DNA of 64,000 bases from Desulfatiglandales bacterium (GTDB taxonomy: Bacteria; Desulfobacterota; DSM-4660; Desulfatiglandales; Desulfatiglandaceae). Positions 41,499 to 48,846 of the stretch are shown here, piece after piece (position 1 is the first letter of the stretch; every line of letters begins with the position of its first letter). The DNA is taken from the NCBI GenBank assembly GCA_963662465.1, contig OY759599.1, positions 3,392,001-3,456,000 of the forward strand, read 5' to 3'. The notes beneath the pieces are model-generated. The model had not been told where the DNA came from. It searched no databases and worked only from the letters and a program-made list of their open reading frames with translations. A program made the translations under genes and the position numbers.

Positions 41499-41951
41499 TT
41501 ATGTGCGGTTTTTTTCCTGATCATCTCGTTCGCCAAAAACAGCAATCTCCGCGCAAAGTTTTTTCACTGCGTTTTCAAAAATGGATGGATGTGGTATCAT
41601 CTTTAATCTTTCAGTTACGTTTCGTATTGACATGATTATTTTACCGCCAAAATCGTCTTGCCGATTTTTCAGCATTTGAATTAACGCATCGCCGGCAAGA
41701 ATTCTGGCGTCGTAGTAAGTGTTGTCATCGTCCAGTATGCTGAGAACCTGGTGAATCAACTGATGGGACGGGCGTTGAATCTCTCCGACCCGTTTTAGCA
41801 CCTCCTCGCGAAGCCGCCAGTTTCCCTTGTGTTTCAGTATCCGAATCAGACCGGCCTGACATTCCGGTAGTTTGCCGGCGTTCGCCAGTTCATCAAGGAT
41901 ATCCAGAACCGCCTCCCAATTATTGAGGTCTCCAAAGGGATCTTGCTTCAT
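41499..41951 (-). CDS. Hypothetical helical (HEAT-like) protein
   Basis: NWRLREEVL and YYDARILAGDAL repeats; translationally coupled to the antiporter stop. Confidence 0.65.
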   Translation of the reverse strand: MKQDPFGDLNNWEAVLDILDELANAGKLPECQAGLIRILKHKGNWRLREEVLKRVGEIQRPSHQLIHQVLSILDDDNTYYDARILAGDALIQMLKNRQDDFGGKIIMSIRNVTERLKMIPHPSIFENAVKKLCAEIAVFGERDDQEKNRT

Positions 41952-42960
41952 TGAACTGCTCCTTCGCAGGCATCGTCCTTACGCAGTGAAGACGATGCCA
42001 TGAGAAAAAATGAATTCCTGTCCTGGTCATTTCCGATAATCGCGACCAGGTCTTCAGGCTCCAAAACAAAGTCGGCATCGGGATTGGCTTTTAAGACGCC
42101 TTCCCGGACAACGCCGACGATGGATACCCCCGTTTTTTTGCGTATTTCGCTCTTGTCGATCGTCCCATGGGCCATGGGACTTTCCTGCGCCAAACGGACC
42201 CATTGCAAATCGAATTGTTGCTCGGCGCCTCGGAGTTGGGACAATAAGCGATACTTGTCATTGTTATTAAGCAAAGCGGCATAGCGTTCCTGTCGAATGG
42301 TATCCGTGTGGCGTTGGACTTCCGTCGGCGGAACCCTCAAATGGAGAAGGGCCTGTCGCGTCATTTCGAGGCCCGCCTCGAATTCCGGAAGAACGATTTG
42401 CGCCACCCCCAGATCTTTAAAAACATCGAAATAATCCGGGCCGGATGCTCGTGCAATTATTTCGAGCCTCTCATTTAGCCGTTTCGACTGAACCAGGGTC
42501 GATTTGGCAGCCACAACCCCGGGGATGGTTAAGATCAGAAGGGTCGCATCTTTGATTCCTGCCGCTTCAAGAACAATTTCCTGGCCGGCATCGCCATATA
42601 CAATAGCCAAACCAGCCGCCTTGGCTTGTTCAAAGCGCCGGTGGTCAAGCTCTATAATTACAAATGGCATACCGACCCGCTTCATGACCGTTGCTATCTG
42701 AAAACCCAACCTTCAACGCTAATCAAAACTGAACCAAGTTTGCTAATGGAAATTGAACCATTGGCTGTCACCGCCGGTGAGTACGGCCCTCAGGTATAGC
42801 GGACGATGAGGGATCCATAAGTGGCGGCAAAGGAGTCGTTGATGTAGATTTACTTTTCAATAAATTTTTATAAAATCTATTTTCTTTGGATTTGGTTTTC
42901 TTCTTCCAAGACAGAGGCTTGGTTAAGTGGAAATGCGATTTACTTTGTAGAATGGATGGT

Positions 42961-42996
42961 GAAGGCCCGAAGTAGCCGCTTCGGGCCTTCTTTTTT
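42961..42996 (+). terminator. Intrinsic terminator/attenuator in the IS leader
   Basis: GAAGGCCCGAAG-tagccg-CTTCGGGCCTTC followed by T6. Confidence 0.75.
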
Positions 42997-43072
42997 GACC
43001 ACCGGATAGAGCCGGAAGCCACACACACGCCAATTTTATATAAGTGTGTTTCCGGCCAATTGCAAGGCTGGA

Positions 43073-43489
43073 ATGATGGGAGATGTCCTTTTAAGAGTGG
43101 TTCAATGCCGATGTTGTGGTTGCTTTTTTCACGTCTGTCGGTCGTGTTGGCGTGGCCAGGCCTATTGTGGGGAACGATGTCGCAGGATACGCCAAAGACA
43201 GCTGCACCGGAAAGCTCAGGGGAAATACCGCAATTCGAAAAAAGGGAAAGAGCGCCGTCGTTTGTACGAAAAAACAAAAAAATCCAAAAAAAATGGACTG
43301 AACCCTGGTGATGATAGTTCAACACCTCAAAAAGACTGTGATATTGAACCCAAAAAGCGGTCGGGGAACCGACCCAGCTGTCTTTTTTGCGGGTCGATCG
43401 GGGTTGTTGTGGACCATTTTCCTCGCCGTGCTTATGCAGGGAGGGTTTTTTCAGATGTAACAGGCTTTGAGAAAACCCCATATCCATGA
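43073..43489 (+). CDS. Basic Cys-rich (Zn-finger) protein, IS passenger
   Basis: CRCC..CRSCWRGQAYCGERC, an R/K-rich helix and CLFC. Confidence 0.75.
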   Translation: MMGDVLLRVVQCRCCGCFFHVCRSCWRGQAYCGERCRRIRQRQLHRKAQGKYRNSKKGKERRRLYEKTKKSKKNGLNPGDDSSTPQKDCDIEPKKRSGNRPSCLFCGSIGVVVDHFPRRAYAGRVFSDVTGFEKTPYP

Positions 43490-43501
43490 CAGGAGAAAAA
43501 A

Positions 43502-43921
43502 ATGATCAAAAAAAGAGTCCTTTTTCCCGAAAGAGTGCGTGTCATCAATGGAAGCTTCGGCTTTCTGGAGCATCGTTTTTTGAGAAACGGCTTTTGGGAG
43601 AGCCTGAATCATCATGAGCTGCTGCTCTACATTTTTCTGGTGTTGGTATCTGACAAAAACGGGCTCTCTTATTATGGTTACGACAGAATCTGCCGGATTT
43701 TAAAGGTGCATTTGGATCAATATATCGATGCCCGCGATGGCTTGTTGGACAAGGATCTGATTGGGTTTGATGGCCGTCTGTTTCAGGTTCTTTCGCTTCC
43801 CAGACGTCCTGTGATTGTGAAACAGGTAAAGGAGATCCGGCAAGGAAATTGGGTCAGTCTTGGAGAAACCATAGAGGAAATCTTTCGGGAGACTGGGTAT
43901 GGAATCCATCCGAACCGTTGA
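43502..43921 (+). CDS. Winged-HTH-like protein, IS passenger
   Basis: AGGAG RBS; LLLYIFLVLVSDKNGLSYYGYDRIC..L resembles the N terminus of replication-type wHTH proteins. Confidence 0.7.
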   Translation: MIKKRVLFPERVRVINGSFGFLEHRFLRNGFWESLNHHELLLYIFLVLVSDKNGLSYYGYDRICRILKVHLDQYIDARDGLLDKDLIGFDGRLFQVLSLPRRPVIVKQVKEIRQGNWVSLGETIEEIFRETGYGIHPNR

Positions 43922-44783
43922 TATTCATTTGCTGGAGTTGCGTTACGCTCATTGCCGGATAATGAATCACCAGGCTTTAAAGCGATTGAGGGATTCCATC
44001 GAAACTTACGGGCAGATCGTTCCGGCCCTGGCTATTGAAGAAAAAGACAAACTGATTCTGATTGATGGCTACCTGCGTGTTCGAGCGCTTTGTGCTTGTG
44101 GAAAGGACCGGATATGTGTCCAATTCTCAAAAGAAAACGAACAAAATGCCATGTTTTCGCTTTTAACCAAGGCCAATGAACGGCAATGGGAAGTCATTGA
44201 GCAGTCTGTTTTACTTCAGGAATTACATCGGCGTTTTGGGTGCAGCCTCTCCCATATTGCAACCCGAATAGGGCGCGACAAGAGTTTTGTAAAACGGCGG
44301 CTGGACCTGGTTGAAGCCCTGCCGGAAAATATTTTGAGAACCGTGATTGCAGGCTCACTTTCAACCTGGGCTGCCAGCCGTGTCATGGCGCCGTTGGCGC
44401 GCGCCAACGGTGAAGACGCACAAAAACTGTTGGCCCACCTGGAAAAAGAACCTCTATCCACAAGGGAACTGGCCCGTTTCTACGCACATTACCAGAAAAG
44501 CAACCGGTCTGTTCGAGACCACATGCTGGAAAATCCATCCCTTTTCATAAAAGTTCTCGAACAAAGAACCCAGTCTAAACAAGCCAAAGAAGTTCATGAT
44601 GGACCGGAAGGCAAATGGTTCAAGGATATTGAAATGGTATATGCGGTTCTCAAACGTCTGGTGAAAACCGTTTCGCATGTCCATTACCCAAAAAGCGATC
44701 AGTTGAAGAAACAAACGCTCAAAACCTGGGTGAAAAAGATAGAAAAACAAGCACTGGAACTCAAGAAAGCGACCCAATTATGA
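43899..44783 (+). CDS. ParB/Spo0J-like protein, IS passenger
   Basis: LRDSIETYGQIVP, LIDGYLRVRAL (GxxRxxA) and HTH SLSHIATRIGRDKSFVKRRL. Confidence 0.85.
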   Translation: MESIRTVDIHLLELRYAHCRIMNHQALKRLRDSIETYGQIVPALAIEEKDKLILIDGYLRVRALCACGKDRICVQFSKENEQNAMFSLLTKANERQWEVIEQSVLLQELHRRFGCSLSHIATRIGRDKSFVKRRLDLVEALPENILRTVIAGSLSTWAASRVMAPLARANGEDAQKLLAHLEKEPLSTRELARFYAHYQKSNRSVRDHMLENPSLFIKVLEQRTQSKQAKEVHDGPEGKWFKDIEMVYAVLKRLVKTVSHVHYPKSDQLKKQTLKTWVKKIEKQALELKKATQL

Positions 44784-46162
44784 TCCGACAATCCAAAAAA
44801 GATGCCATTGTGGAATTGAAAAAAACCGGCATGAGTTTGCGCGACATCGCCAAAACCCTGAAGGCCGGTCGCAATACCGTCACGAAGGTTTTAGATGATC
44901 ATGACGAAGAGGCGGTACCCCAAAGGAACTCCCGGTATGAAGAACATGTCCCGTTGATCCGCGAGCTTTTCAAGGAATGTAAAGGAAATGCCGTGCGAGT
45001 AGCCGAGGAACTGGAAAGCCGCCAACAGATCAAAATCCCTTATCAGAGTCTGACCTGGATTATGAGAAAGTACGAGATCCGGGAACGTAAAAAAAGACGG
45101 GCGGGCCAATACCATTTTAAACCCGGTCAGGAGATGCAGCATGATACGTCACCCCATCTGGTTGTCATTAATGGGAAAAAAATGTCGACCCAGTGCGCGT
45201 CCCTGACCCTGGCCTTTTGCCGAAGGATTTTTATTCAGTATTACCCCTGTTTTACCCGGTTTGAGTGCAAGGTTTTCCTAAAAAAAGCATTCGAGTTTAT
45301 GGACGGGGTGTGTTCCCGGTGCATGGTTGACAACACCAATGTTATTGTGGCCGGCGGCACCGGGCCTGATGCATTGATTGCGCCTGAAATGAAATACTTC
45401 GGCGATATGTATGGAACCCGGTTTGAGGCCCATGCTGTAGGAGACGCCAATCGAAGTGCCCGTGTGGAAAGGCCTTTTCATTTTGTGGAAAACAATTTTC
45501 TTCCCGGTAGAACATTTGTTAGCTGGCAGGATTTGAACCGGCAGGCAATCGACTGGTGCCGGAATACAAGCGATAAAAAGTTTAAACGGGCTTTAGGGAT
45601 GACGCCGGATGAGGCCTATGTCATTGAAAAGCCATATCTCATTGATTTACCGGCATACCAGCCGCCAGTCTATGTGGCAGAACACAGGGTAGCCGATGTT
45701 CAGGGATATGTGCACTTGGACACCAACCGCTATTCAGTCCCTGAAGCGCTGATTGGGAACTCCCTGGAAGTACAGAAACATTGGCTCAAGGTCATCGTTT
45801 ACGACAAAAACACAAAAGTGGCGGAACATGACCGCATACTGGATAAACGCAACACCCGAACAACCCTGCCCGGTCACCATGTTCCCATTCGAAGAAAAAA
45901 AGATCCCCGAATCCCTTCAAAAGAAGAACAGCTGTTGACGGGAGAGGATGCCATCCTGGATGAGTATGTGGCTGAACTGAAGAAAAGAAGTCACGGTCGC
46001 GGTGTGGTCAAGTTACGTCGGTTGCTTCATCTGAAACGCACTTATCCCGGGGAACCTTTTTTGAAAGCCATAACACAGGCGCTTAAATATGGACTTTTTG
46101 ATTTGTCGCGTCTGGAAAACATTATTCTCGATTATATCGCGGGAGACTTTTTTGATCTATGA
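44780..46162 (+). CDS. istA: IS21 DDE transposase
   Basis: N-terminal HTH; PGQEMQHD, VDN, SARVER; DTNRYSVP beta domain. Confidence 0.92.
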   Translation: MIRQSKKDAIVELKKTGMSLRDIAKTLKAGRNTVTKVLDDHDEEAVPQRNSRYEEHVPLIRELFKECKGNAVRVAEELESRQQIKIPYQSLTWIMRKYEIRERKKRRAGQYHFKPGQEMQHDTSPHLVVINGKKMSTQCASLTLAFCRRIFIQYYPCFTRFECKVFLKKAFEFMDGVCSRCMVDNTNVIVAGGTGPDALIAPEMKYFGDMYGTRFEAHAVGDANRSARVERPFHFVENNFLPGRTFVSWQDLNRQAIDWCRNTSDKKFKRALGMTPDEAYVIEKPYLIDLPAYQPPVYVAEHRVADVQGYVHLDTNRYSVPEALIGNSLEVQKHWLKVIVYDKNTKVAEHDRILDKRNTRTTLPGHHVPIRRKKDPRIPSKEEQLLTGEDAILDEYVAELKKRSHGRGVVKLRRLLHLKRTYPGEPFLKAITQALKYGLFDLSRLENIILDYIAGDFFDL

Positions 46163-46878
46163 AAAAGAAAATTGAACAGTTACTCATTGATTTGAAGTTT
46201 AAAGGCATGCTGAAGGCTCTCGAAGAACAGTTGGCTTCGGCTGAAAAGAACGGTTTTTCCATTCACGAGGTCATCTACAATCTCCTGGCTGAGGAATTAC
46301 GTTTCCGGCAGGAGCGCAGCATGATCTATCGGGTCCAGATTGCAAAGCTTCCATGGGAATGGACCCTCAACTCCTTTCCGTTTGATCTTCAGCCGGGAAT
46401 ACAGAAGAGCCGGATCATGACGTTGTCCGGCCTTGACTTTATCAGCCGAAGAGAAAACATCGTGTTCCATGGAAAAACCGGCGTCGGCAAAACGGGATTG
46501 GCCGTGGGGATCCTTCGTCAAGCCATTATTGCCGGGTACCGGGGGCGTTTTTATAATGTTCAGGATTTGCTGGATCAGCTCTATGCGTCTTTGGCAGATC
46601 GGTCCACCCCGAAACTCCTCAATGCCCTTTGCAGATATGACCTGCTTCTGCTCGATGAACTGGGATACCTGACCCTCAAAAAAGAGCAGATGAACGCCTT
46701 TTTTAAACTCATGAAAGATCGCTATGAAGCCGGTCGGTCCACAATTATTACGACCAATCTTCAACCTGAACAATGGTATTCGCTGCTTGAACCAAAGGAC
46801 ATGGTCGATGCCTTGCTGGATCGTCTCAACCATCGCTGCATCAACATTCATATTGATGGTCCTTCCCTCAGAAAATGA
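46159..46878 (+). CDS. istB: IS21 helper AAA+ ATPase
   Basis: GKTGVGKT, LLLLDELGY, STIITTN, ALLDRL. Confidence 0.95.
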   Translation: MKKKIEQLLIDLKFKGMLKALEEQLASAEKNGFSIHEVIYNLLAEELRFRQERSMIYRVQIAKLPWEWTLNSFPFDLQPGIQKSRIMTLSGLDFISRRENIVFHGKTGVGKTGLAVGILRQAIIAGYRGRFYNVQDLLDQLYASLADRSTPKLLNALCRYDLLLLDELGYLTLKKEQMNAFFKLMKDRYEAGRSTIITTNLQPEQWYSLLEPKDMVDALLDRLNHRCINIHIDGPSLRK

Positions 46879-46976
46879 GATGTTCGCCAAAGGGCCGGTT
46901 TTGAGGTCTGAATATCACCGGTCTGTTTGAATCTCGTTACACGAATATCAGAAATTACCTTGTCTTGGAGCTTGAA

Positions 46977-47174
46977 ATGAGAGGTGGAAAACGGGTAGGC
47001 GCCGGCCGAAGAAAGAAACCGGAACATTTGAGACGTGAACTGCTCACCATTCGTCTCCCCAAATGGATGATTCTACAGCTGAAAAAAAACGGGGAAATTG
47101 GATATTTGATTGAGGATCAATTGGCGAAGGGAGGCCTCCTGAATTTACCGGACGACTATGACATAGACAAATAG
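46977..47174 (+). CDS. Small putative DNA-binding protein, IS passenger
   Basis: RGGKRVGAGR motif followed by an RHH-like TIRLP; GGAG RBS. Confidence 0.6.
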   Translation: MRGGKRVGAGRRKKPEHLRRELLTIRLPKWMILQLKKNGEIGYLIEDQLAKGGLLNLPDDYDIDK

Positions 47175-48846
47175 TTCCTCAATAAGCATTGCCCTTAACC
47201 GAAAAATCTAATCCCCTCTTCTCTGCCATCACCATATTGATGGTATCCTCATCACTGATTCTTCAACCAGAACGCTACGTGTCTCACCAGCATTTTTAAA
47301 ATACCATCTGATATACTCTTTCATGCAACCTCTAACAAATTTACAAGAAAACCCTTCTAAAAGGAAAAGACCAGTGCGCAATATCTGGTTCCGTTTGGAG
47401 TAGCAAAACTGGTTCCATTTTGGTTAGCGCCCAAGAACCCAACCGACCGCCGCCGGCAATAACGGCATGGTTCTTAAGCCCGGTGTCGGGTATGCTTGAC
47501 GACTCAAGCGGTTCATGACGAAACCAACGCTTTTTCAATGCATACAGCCGCGCAGTCTGGCCTGAAACCAATGGGGTCAGCACCATCGTCAAGACGGTAG
47601 TGGTCAGTATCAAAGCGTAGAGATCGTTGTTTATCGAATGGGTCGATAGCCCCAGGCGCGCCAACACGAACGAAAACTCGCCAATCTGAAACAGACCCAG
47701 CCCAACGGCCAGCGGGATCACGTTGCCGTATCTGAAAATCCGAACGATGACCGCGAAAATGATGCCCTTGCCGATACCGACGGCCAGCACCAGGGCAATC
47801 ACCTGCCCGAAATGATCCACCAGAAAAACCGGGTCCAAGAGCATGCCGACCGAGGTGAAAAACAACAGCCCAAAAAGATCACGAAGGGGAATGATATCGC
47901 TCAGGGCTTGATAGCCATAGTCGGATTCGCTTAGCACCATGCCGGCGACAAACGCACCAAAGGCAAAGGAAAGCCCCAGCATGTGCGTAACATACCCTAT
48001 GCCCAAACCGATGGCGGTGATGGCAAGCAAGAAGAGTTCCCGCGAACCCAGGTTGGCGATATGCGTCATCAGTCGCGGCAAAAGCCGGGTGCCCAGCAAG
48101 ATCATTCCCGCGATAAAACCAGCCGCTTTTACCGCGGCGAAACCGATGGCAGGCAAACCTACCGCCGGGTTGTTCAGTTGAGGGAGGATAATCATCATGG
48201 GGATCACAGCCAGATCCTGAACGATGAGCATTCCAATCATCACCTTGCTGGAAAGGGCGCCTAACCAGCCCTGGTTCATCAGCGTCTTGAGGATCACCAT
48301 GGTGCTCGAAAGGGAAATAAGGGCCCCGAGCCACAGTGACGCTTTCCAATCCCATCCCATCAAGTGCCCGATACATAAACCAAAACCAATGGTAAGGGTC
48401 ATCTGGATAGGCGTACCGATCAAAGCCGCCTTTTTTACCGGTTTGAGATCTTTGAGGGAAAACTCAAGCCCCAGCGCGAACAGAAGCAGGGCCACGCCTA
48501 TCTCGGCAAGCAATTCGATTTCGTGAATGTTGGAAACCGTAAGCCCCCCGGTATGGGGTCCCAAAATGACCCCTGCCGCGATATAACCCAGGATTAGCGG
48601 CTGGCCGAGTCGCTGCATAATCATGCCGCAAAAAAATGCCGCAACGATAAGAAGTATGATGTCGGTCGCAATACCCATTTTACCGCATCCCATGCCTTGG
48701 GCAAAATTCATTTAAGATGTCGGCATCGGCGGGCAACATATAACACGTTGGCTGCTCCATGCATGCCTTCACCCTGGAATATTTGTCGTTATTCCTTCAC
48801 GGCAGTAACGCATCCCGTTATGCGTTAAGTACCAATGTAAAATCAA

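Follow-up and report, generated by a model that had tools for sequence, protein, structure and literature searches.

The stretch of DNA analyzed here (hereafter the window) comprises 64,000 nucleotides from a Desulfatiglandales bacterium (assembly GCA_963662465.1, contig OY759599.1, positions 3,392,001 to 3,456,000) and contains a 4725-bp IS21-type insertion sequence (IS) at 42711-47435, with C as its first and G as its last letter, in which a ParB-like gene with an internal palindrome precedes the istA-istB pair. The span proposed for the element in a first-pass annotation of the window proved exact to the base, and repeat searches, reading of the flanks and the list of open reading frames (ORFs) likewise bear out the terminal inverted repeats and 8-bp target duplication which that annotation had placed around six co-oriented genes. 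The two 8-bp copies of the duplication, AACCCAAC, lie at 42703-42710 and 47436-47443, and nine letters are shared at the joint in a contig of the empty site from the public sequencing run X1 (see below). The left inverted repeat (IRL; 42711-42760, + strand) consists of the terminal CTTCAACGCTAA and two ~20-nt direct sub-repeats (GCTAAT..TGAACCA), its end being identical in 21/21 full copies of the element and present also in the relative from NaphS2. The right inverted repeat (IRR; 47386-47435, - strand), delimited by the repeat search and compared with the NaphS2 relative, contains two sub-repeats and terminates in ...TTAGCGCCCAAG. The repeat search aligns inverted arms of 44 nt that are 77% complementary (42717-42760 and 47386-47429), and the outermost bases, CTT...AAG, pair as well. 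At each end the two ~20-nt direct sub-repeats are spaced 24 nt apart (repeat family D15), the multi-site arrangement known from IS21 ends, and the same multi-repeat design is found in the NaphS2 element and in the type-B and miniature elements described below.

The six + strand ORFs encode, in order, a zinc-finger protein (43046-43489), a helix-turn-helix (HTH) protein (43502-43921), the ParB-like protein (43899-44783), IstA (44780-46162), IstB (46159-46878) and a small protein termed orf6 (46965-47174). Consecutive genes from the HTH gene to istB overlap by 23, 4 and 4 nt; the first-pass annotation had described these genes as overlapping. The transposase IstA (460 aa) matches the IS21 family transposase model NF033546 over positions 3-294 of 294 (1.9e-37) at 129 bits, under the cut-off of 160, and is thus a divergent member; it also matches Mu-transpos_C_2 (9.6e-17; 60.9 bits, above the cut-off of 27) and groups with annotated IS21 IstAs in a phylogenetic tree. 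IstB (239 aa) is an AAA+ helper ATPase recognized by PF01695 (3.5e-59, 200.6 bits) and NF038214 (225 bits, above the cut-off of 200). The placement of IstB directly downstream of istA, the multi-motif inverted repeats and the short target duplication are all features of IS21. The six ORFs depart from a two-gene-only organization; PMC12486865 describes IS21 as encoding two proteins required for mobility.

The ParB-like protein (294 aa) combines a ParB N-domain, an HTH DNA-binding domain and a family-specific three-helix C-terminal domain. It is matched by PF17762 at 29 bits (cut-off 22.6) and by TIGR00180 at 44 bits, below the cut-off of 58.45. A profile built from 28 relatives matches 16 PDB sequences, including the nucleotide-bound Myxococcus ParB (3e-17), Spo0J, Caulobacter ParB and Noc, with KorB matched weakly. 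Further, the predicted AlphaFold2 model (predicted local distance difference test score, pLDDT, of 88) retrieves nucleotide-bound ParB structures as its top Foldseek matches (ParB-CDP at E 1.4e-09; also Noc and KorB; probability 1.00). The structural and profile matches span the N-domain and the HTH domain; residues 210-294 comprise three long helices with an invariant G235-P-E-G-x-W240 (GPEGxW) motif found only in this family. The GxxRxxA motif that was reported to be kept is indeed present as G57-x-x-R60-x-x-A63: in the alignment of the 28 relatives, G57, R60, R20 and D56 are invariant (G57 and R60 in 28/28), and H18, A63 and R95 are kept in at least 90% of the sequences. The N-domain comes right at the start of the protein, residue 26 of which aligns with residue 24 of the crystallized M. 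xanthus ParB construct, and we infer that this leaves little room for an N-terminal ParA-contacting peptide; no ParA-type gene was found in any element examined. Complex predictions of the ParB-like protein with IstA and IstB, whose runs gave 0.06, 0.32 and 0.06, count neither for nor against binding.

Relatives of the element were gathered through the ParB-like protein (one genome per species), through ParB and then IstA in 400 sampled genomes of the phylum, and in the element's own genome (one contig of 8.16 Mb, C1 in the coordinates below). The first of these searches recovered 68 loci, and in 26 of the 28 that exceed 2.5 kb IstA directly follows ParB, the two exceptions being L056, where the DNA ends within parB, and L067, where a fragment of ParB stands without IstA. 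A single genome, NaphS2, accounts for many of the 28 through its several copies; independent lineages are represented by the window type, NaphS2 (84-86% ParB identity), L033, a Desulfobulbaceae/Thermodesulfovibrionia group (49-51%), L060, L061 (44-45%) and L074. The ParB search of the 400 phylum genomes added strong matches in 4 further genomes, and relatives at 38-41% ParB identity again have parB directly upstream of istA: L099 and L100 show the order ParB-IstA-IstB, in L100 with the zinc finger too. The copy in L101 is broken, L102 stops within parB, and L103 retains a remnant with zinc finger and ParB. The IstA search of the same genomes found 5 other genomes at E <= 1e-40. The matches at 50-55% identity are the ParB-linked loci of the ParB search; in those at 31-32% (G206 and G061) a ParB-like gene of 22-24% identity overlaps istA, and the match in G284 (36% over residues 77-460) is without a ParB-like gene.

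The own genome also contains a second ParB-linked type (type B), represented by a 5028-bp element at C1:8094473-8099500 (locus L116) and a further copy near C1:6813482. Its gene order is ParB-like (298 aa), IstA (494 aa; 31% identity), IstB (35%), a CHC2 DnaG-type zinc-ribbon protein (164 aa) and an orf6 homologue (78%), and its ends read CTATAGCGCTCAG... The type-B layout recurs on a named plasmid of Desulforapulum autotrophicum, where it is headed by a gene of the zinc-finger family seen in the window (hhalign 97.6%), and this zinc-finger family is therefore found upstream of parB in both subfamilies. The linkage of zinc finger, ParB, IstA and IstB is thus kept down to 28-32% IstA and 22-24% ParB identity, whereas the annotated istA-istB pairs on three other plasmids have neither a zinc-finger nor a ParB-like gene upstream. 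In a maximum-likelihood IstA tree of 19 rows, 13 ParB-linked rows are separated from the 6 others by one branch with support 100/99, the outgroup being small and its branches long. In terms of family size, 984 clusters (90% identity) score at E <= 1e-5 among the candidates scored, mostly from contigs of 1-5 kb, and 496 cluster representatives (50% identity) at E <= 1e-30; a search of 72,556 plasmids returned no close relative of the ParB-like protein at E 1e-10.

These observations divide the earlier proposal that the three genes upstream of istA are transposition factors rather than cargo, which was to be gauged from their persistence alongside IstA homologues. The outcome favors it for the zinc-finger and ParB-like genes, which stay linked to istA within the ParB-linked IstA clade and are absent from ordinary IS21, and does not for the HTH gene, which is lineage-specific. 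As judged from gene order and phylogeny, the element is a member of a distinct deep IS21 subfamily with a conserved core of four genes (zinc finger, ParB-like, IstA and IstB) and not two, and we infer that the zinc-finger and ParB-like proteins act in transposition.

Within parB lies a perfect 20-bp palindrome, CCGTTGGCGCGCGCCAACGG (44391-44410, with a 16-bp core at 44393-44408), which spans codons P165-G171 and is a candidate parS-like cis site. The 16-bp core is the sole match within 3 mismatches across the window, and 25 of the 26 occurrences of the palindrome in the own genome lie in copies of the element. It lies within the operon, and in every member examined the istA start follows 370 bp downstream. 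Of 12 distinct relatives, 5 have exactly the six codons CCG TTG GCG CGC GCC AAC and 4 more are one base off, at protein identities of 45-86%. Across six clades, codon identity at identical residues is 0.85-0.86 at the palindrome, as against overall values of 0.39 for parB, 0.41 for istA and 0.40 for istB. Once corrected for each amino acid's own codon-identity rate, the palindrome ranks first of the 923 six-codon windows of these three genes with a z of 14.0, the next non-overlapping window standing at 5.1.

A metagenome scan with the exact 18-mer yielded at least 120 stretches, of which 80 were examined. In 54 of these the 18-mer lies inside an ORF matching the ParB profile (53 by tblastn, at 29-64% identity to the window protein, median 37%). 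In these palindrome-ascertained loci IstA follows in 34/35 and IstB in 24/26, and an ORF matching the zinc-finger profile precedes in 22/32; inspection of 5 of the 10 loci without such a match revealed a diverged zinc finger in L153, L135 and L182, a cassette of a Cys-rich and an HTH protein in L155, and none that is clear in L181. Further, the type-B parB genes contain a different perfect palindrome of 16-18 bp at the same codons (F-I-R-M/I-N), which reads GTTCATACGTATGAAC in the own genome and G061 and GTTTATACGTATAAAC in G206 and the named plasmid. The two differ by a symmetric C:G -> T:A change, in which a synonymous TTC/TTT exchange is coupled to an ATG/ATA replacement and is thus compensatory. 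Among 401 genomes, a pattern covering both versions was found in 3, at a total of 5 places that all lie within type-B parB genes; the control gave 0 matches. The outer GTT...AAC arms are common to both palindrome types, and the presumed recognition-helix region differs between them (GRDKSFVKRRLDL vs EKSKSWVSMRCGI). On these comparisons, the palindrome is conserved at the DNA level and covaries with the ParB subfamily.

Two other interpretations of the palindrome were considered and set aside. An RNA hairpin is a poor fit, given that the type-B site is AT-rich. Mimicry of abutted IS termini was suggested by the window half-site, which by eye matches 7/9 terminal bases, but the type-B termini (CTATAGCGCTCAG) are unlike the type-B palindrome and the idea was dropped for this reason. 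Contexts of the 18-mer other than ParB recur in two or three samples each (L138/L167/L175, L164/L180, L146/L160, L191/L195 and L148/L162), some of them coding, with ...(P/S)LARAN... in frame.

The palindrome is also found in miniature elements devoid of genes. The metagenome stretch L196 contains a 318-bp element (919-1236) without any ORF of the family, whose 27-nt ends show 93% complementarity and have two sub-repeats each. An 8-bp duplication, CTCTATGC, flanks it, subject to the one-base ambiguity that the window element also shows, and the reading frame into which it is inserted is ligase-like. In this element the exact 18-mer lies 2 nt from the inner right repeat. The same miniature element is present in L154 with a different left flank. 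L168 contains an element of ~390 bp with 50-nt ends at 70% and the 18-mer near its middle, with no visible target duplication. In the own genome, the only occurrence of the palindrome outside element copies (L118, C1:3732981-3733252) is a lone 18-bp version in single-copy, AT-rich intergenic DNA. A weak left-end-like motif is 10 bp away, and at a distance of ~230 bp there is a diverged right end with the same last 14 letters as the window IRR; the site may be the relic of a miniature element.

The element is mobile and has moved recently. It has 21 full-length copies in the own genome at 99.49-100% identity, with several more interrupted by other inserts. With the invariant first C assigned to the element, target duplications among the 21 measure 8 bp in seven copies, 7 bp in eight, 6 bp in one and 5 bp in one, and are absent from four. 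Duplications of 7 or 8 bp, therefore, accompany 15/21 copies, and 8 bp is also seen in the NaphS2 copy L020; the range in the IS21 family is 4-8 bp. No common sequence, and hence no target preference, was seen among the 17 duplications of 5-8 bp, and the flanks of the four copies without duplication do not cross-match in a way that would account for them. In the window, the insertion falls in a cation/proton antiporter gene, between the membrane domain and the TrkA_N/TrkA_C domains. The C-terminal half is at 41948-42709 (- strand; TrkA_N 2.8e-18, TrkA_C 1.8e-10) and the N-terminal half at 47436-48711 (- strand, in the ORF 47341-48711; Na_H_Exchanger 2e-55). Each half retains its own set of domains, in keeping with the earlier description of both as otherwise intact, and joining them across the insertion regains the GGGRLG Rossmann motif. 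A 3681-letter contig from run X1, which has the same organism label, runs directly from 47436 to 42702 with the 9 shared letters, i.e., it presents the empty site and an uninterrupted antiporter gene. The window insertion is thus polymorphic within one organism label, the strain of run X1 being without it. The impression of a recent insertion is, accordingly, borne out by the 21 near-identical copies and the empty-site contig, and the element is recently or currently active.

In run X1 the word-depth of the element is ~1116-1143 as against 32 for the flank (~35x), with ~25 assembled copies of most of the element; this depth is not equal to copy number. Contigs of two metatranscriptome libraries (X7 and X9) cover 26/30 bins of the element at 90-99% likeness, which is no proof of transcription. 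The inserts within the interrupted copies (~1.9 kb, ~1.8 kb and ~0.1 kb) are all of other kinds and none is the same element. The copies at C1:1533099-1539753 and C1:5974617-5981271 share an identical ~1.9-kb insert at element position 364-373, with a 10-bp overlap; this composite was itself duplicated or sits within a duplicated region.

Among the remaining genes, the zinc-finger protein (147 aa from GTG at 43046, or 138 aa from ATG at 43073) displays a CxxC...CxxC...QxYCxxxC pattern, a basic helical hairpin and a C-terminal CxFCG..FPRRGYG. It has no match in Pfam, NCBIfam or PHROG, its neighbors in the Atlas are unnamed clusters, and its predicted fold (AlphaFold2 pLDDT 72.8) has no Foldseek match at E <= 0.001, the best being the YacG zinc finger (E 2) and an FCS finger (E 6.9). 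It evolves fast, with 46% identity where ParB has 84%, and keeps the C-x2-C ... Q-x2-C-x3-C residues. The HTH protein (139 aa) resembles HTH_36 (PF13730, 5.5e-05, 23.3 bits, below the cut-off of 25), and tblastn recovers its gene only in the window and NaphS2 lineages and in 2/19 metagenome loci; in one metagenome locus, L155, a Cys-rich and HTH pair stands ahead of parB-istA. Homologues at 58-63% identity are found at C1:3489873-3493976 and C1:285375-288273, between a Cys-rich ORF and three recombinase-like ORFs, which on a reading by eye are putative tyrosine recombinases of what we call recombinase-trio elements. As its homologues head such elements, the HTH gene is seen as a swappable add-on which moves between unrelated kinds of mobile element. 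Homology of the window zinc-finger protein to the Cys-rich protein heading these elements was considered and found unsupported (BLASTP E 0.51).

The product of orf6 (69 aa), with its basic N-terminus (GGKRVGAGRRKKP), belongs to no family in Pfam, NCBIfam or PHROG; it is possibly a ribbon-helix-helix (RHH) DNA binder, the nearest named Atlas clusters being RHH/CcdA/NikA-like at 0.83-0.88, which serve as leads only. Its homologues occur at 65-80% identity in IS21 types whose IstA is just 23-31% identical, and are thus far better conserved than the accompanying transposases. They are seen at C1:5960208-5960649, C1:6821080-6821521 and C1:7838531-7838972 and at seven solo sites, and twice they stand in tandem between a 901-aa IstA ORF and IstB. 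Going by these distributions, the HTH protein and orf6 are exchangeable add-ons. Additional modules follow istB in relatives: the type-B CHC2 zinc ribbon matches PF01807 at 32 bits, and primase-derived modules recur in the ParB-linked IS21 branch. In relatives at 44-45% ParB identity (L060:5581-7037 and L101:4147-4608), istB is followed by a small HTH_32-like ORF, an orf6-like ORF and a DUF3991+Toprim_2 protein.

The first gene is preceded by a leader of 335 nt. It contains a promoter-like site (TTTACT-16-TAAAAT; 42849-42876, + strand), a consensus match of a kind found at 5 sites as against 5.5 expected in shuffles, and a terminator-like hairpin (42961-42990, + strand) with a 13-bp stem and then a T run, between the left end and the first gene. 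The hexamer regions and the hairpin are kept in the NaphS2 element. The leader may be an insulator, an attenuator or an RNA of ~115 nt (fold z -2.26); an Rfam scan of the element found nothing beyond a chance-level match to Mu-gpT-DE (E 0.24, 20.7 bits vs 49). The segment 42761-43045 is also 76% identical to C1:3458440-3458702, 2.4 kb past the end of the window, a locus without an inverted repeat in which the promoter-like site and the hairpin are kept.

As background to the interpretation of these features, ParB/Spo0J, Noc and KorB are CTP (cytidine triphosphate)-dependent DNA clamps which load at 14-16-bp palindromes (parS, NBS and OB), and chromosomal parS sites are often in or near parB. 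The reading that we favor, with a probability of roughly 0.55, is that of an IS21 subfamily with a four-gene core and an internal parS-like cis site, whose palindrome-bound ParB-like protein acts on the donor. A ParB-like dimer would bind the palindrome through its HTH domain and may close on it, or spread from it, via the partly conserved nucleotide pocket. The bound site would then act in cis on the donor in an architectural or licensing capacity, helping IstA to pair the multi-repeat ends or handing the donor to IstB, a role comparable to that of the internal enhancer of phage Mu. The zinc-finger protein is a conserved partner. Given that the palindrome precedes istA by 370 bp within one operon, the ParB complex probably also damps istAB expression. 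Since miniature elements keep what is needed in cis, the retention of the palindrome in gene-less versions ranks a cis role in transposition above pure autoregulation, and it likewise renders such a role likelier than pure cargo. A bolder version can be offered tentatively: the ParB-family protein could be an obligatory third component of a DDE transposition machine, which loads at a single internal parS-like site, possibly as a nucleotide-gated clamp, and licenses the donor for IstA and IstB, such that only palindrome-bearing DNA would be mobilized. Together with the primase-derived modules of the relatives, this would make the IS21 branch one of replisome- and partition-borrowing transposons.

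Several points weigh against the favored reading. The argument from miniature elements consists of two good cases and one relic, with a duplication in L196 only. Most of the related loci were found through ParB or the palindrome and the linkage counts are thus ascertained, the search through IstA only amounting to 5 other genomes. The z of the codon comparison is inflated, as the sequence pairs are not independent, and it is the rank that matters; part of the conservation is also to be sought at the protein level, given that the palindrome encodes the invariant P165, R168 and N170. The 18-mer is not exclusive to the family, since 26/80 of its metagenome matches are outside any ParB-like ORF, several in recurrent unrelated contexts. 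As for the nature of the protein, the E and the first R of the GERRxRA box matter for CTP hydrolysis in the ParBs that have been studied. In the window protein this box reads DGYLRVRA (E -> Y and first R -> L, with G57, R60 and A63 kept) and the ENLQR box reads KANER (family consensus KNNDR), and these changes make CTP-gated clamping doubtful. Further, the palindrome could be bound by IstA, the zinc-finger protein or a host factor in place of the ParB-like protein, the presumed binder. Finally, no right-end-to-left-end junction of a circle or tandem form was found among the public-run contigs compared, contigs being prone to drop rare forms.

The alternative that survives best, which we consider somewhat unlikely, holds that the ParB-like protein is a copy-number sensor or autorepressor only. 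At the palindrome, perhaps spreading from it as KorB does on RK2, it would silence istA-istB such that more copies mean less transposase, and it would have no part in the chemistry or in complex assembly. The position of the site within the operon, 370 bp upstream of istA in every member examined, is compatible with this, as are the translational coupling of the genes, the presence of KorB and Noc among the fold matches, and the leader, in which the succession of a promoter-like site and a strong terminator suggests that expression is tightly controlled; at least 21 copies with intact genes would also fit a self-limiting element. However, the gene-less miniatures have nothing to repress and still keep the exact 18-mer, and an operator need not stay at one codon position through divergence down to 28% IstA identity. 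Moreover, regulation and a cis role are compatible, the favored reading having regulation as a side effect.

Self-marking for target immunity is an improbable second alternative. ParB-family proteins spread from single sites, and interplay of this general kind has precedents in MuA-MuB and in TnsB-TnsC of Tn7; the ParB-like protein would load at the palindrome, coat the element and its neighborhood, and keep IstB, and with it new insertions, off existing copies. It would be in line with this that no interrupted copy has a second copy of the element as its insert. However, the copies make up ~1.4% of the genome and ~0.4 self-hits would be expected among 25 insertions, which renders the absence uninformative. 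IstB is presented as a target-capture AAA+ ATPase in PMC12486865 and PMC11208146, which again suits the idea. Against it, a 318-bp miniature would hardly need protection, and the degenerate CTP motifs weaken the case for spreading.

A quite improbable third alternative posits an episomal or replicative phase, in which a circular form is held, segregated or primed via ParB and the palindrome along with the primase-derived modules of relatives. Several features lean toward it: the CHC2 zinc ribbon (PF01807) or DUF3991+Toprim_2 protein found after istB in relatives, the DnaC-like AAA+ nature of IstB, the 901-aa IstA ORF of another IS21 type in the own genome, the frequent occurrence of HTH_36 in replication initiators, and the ~35x depth of the element over its flank in run X1 beside ~25 assembled copies, with depth again not to be equated with copy number. 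However, the right-to-left junction that a circle would produce is missing from the run contigs, with the above proviso on rare forms, and the window element is without a primase-like gene, a replication origin or an initiator that could be identified. Least probable of all is a cargo role, selfish or host-directed, in which the upstream genes would ride on the IS as a partition-like, nucleoid-associated or addiction module: IS elements can carry passenger genes and the protein is annotated as a chromosome partitioning protein, but the elements examined have no ParA-type gene and the protein seemingly little room for a ParA-contacting peptide, 72,556 plasmids hold no close relative at E 1e-10, and the linkage is stable to 28% IstA identity within one IstA clade, with parB overlapping istA.

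Comparisons with known systems place the favored reading in context. Canonical IS21 elements (IS21, IS5376 and the istA-istB pairs on Chlorohelix, Azospirillum and Methylobacterium plasmids) share with the window element a Mu-type IstA followed by IstB, overlapping genes, multi-repeat ends and a short duplication. In the window element, by contrast, zinc-finger and ParB-like genes precede istA, and there are also an internal palindrome, the 335-nt leader with its terminator and extra small genes, none of which is found in the canonical relatives examined. With ParB/Spo0J, Noc and KorB, the window protein has in common the N-domain and HTH fold, the G, second R and A of GERRxRA, and a 16-bp palindrome (GTT...AAC arms) within its own gene. 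It differs from ParB/Spo0J in the want of a ParA partner and of an N-terminal extension, in its GPEGxW C-terminal domain, and in being transposon-encoded and co-diverging with a DDE transposase. Phage Mu offers a mechanistic parallel, with a related DDE transposase (Mu-transpos_C_2), an AAA+ target-capture partner, multiple end sites and an internal cis site distant from both ends. The Mu internal enhancer (internal activation sequence, IAS) is bound by the transposase itself and by the repressor, and doubles as an operator; in the window element the presumed binder of the palindrome is, by contrast, a separate ParB-family protein, and an enhancer role would apply here by analogy. The Tn7-like elements (TnsD/TniQ and TnsE acting via TnsC) are likewise multi-component DDE systems. 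They contrast with the window element, in which no site-specific targeting was seen (17 duplications) and the extra site is inside the element and not in the target. According to PMC10293859, extra DNA-binding proteins of Tn7-like elements, some with zinc ribbons, steer the AAA+ regulator.

Full-text literature searches found no paper on ParB-linked IS21 elements, though entries in ISfinder or TnCentral may exist; a candidate, PMC13139386, was discarded, as the passages of it with the matching words are unrelated. The palindrome, the type-B covariation and the miniature elements are new here. In public records, the ParB-like genes are named ParB-like or chromosome partitioning protein, IstA goes mostly by hypothetical protein, HTH-domain protein or transposase, and IstB is called IstB-like, with one deposit labeling the type-B IstA as IS21/IS408/IS1162 transposase; such partitioning, hypothetical and HTH labels make the elements invisible to IS annotation. 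A draft assembly of Vibrio cholerae B33 also lists, under three accessions and on contigs no longer than 6.8 kb, proteins identical or nearly so to IstA, IstB and the ParB-like protein of NaphS2; this looks like assembly cross-contamination rather than transfer.

IS21 is a current structural model for AAA+ control of a transposase and ParB is the model for CTP-gated clamps, and an abundant lineage is now seen to join the two. The family is highly active, with at least 21 copies here and many in NaphS2, and some of the genes it disrupts are polymorphic for the insertion under a single organism label. With its defined 20-bp site and its natural miniature substrates it is a directly testable system, and the questions raised are those of a ParB clamp in transposition, of a cis requirement, and of the roles of the zinc-finger and primase-like partners. 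The whole of these observations points to an additional layer in the well-studied IS21 transposition machine.

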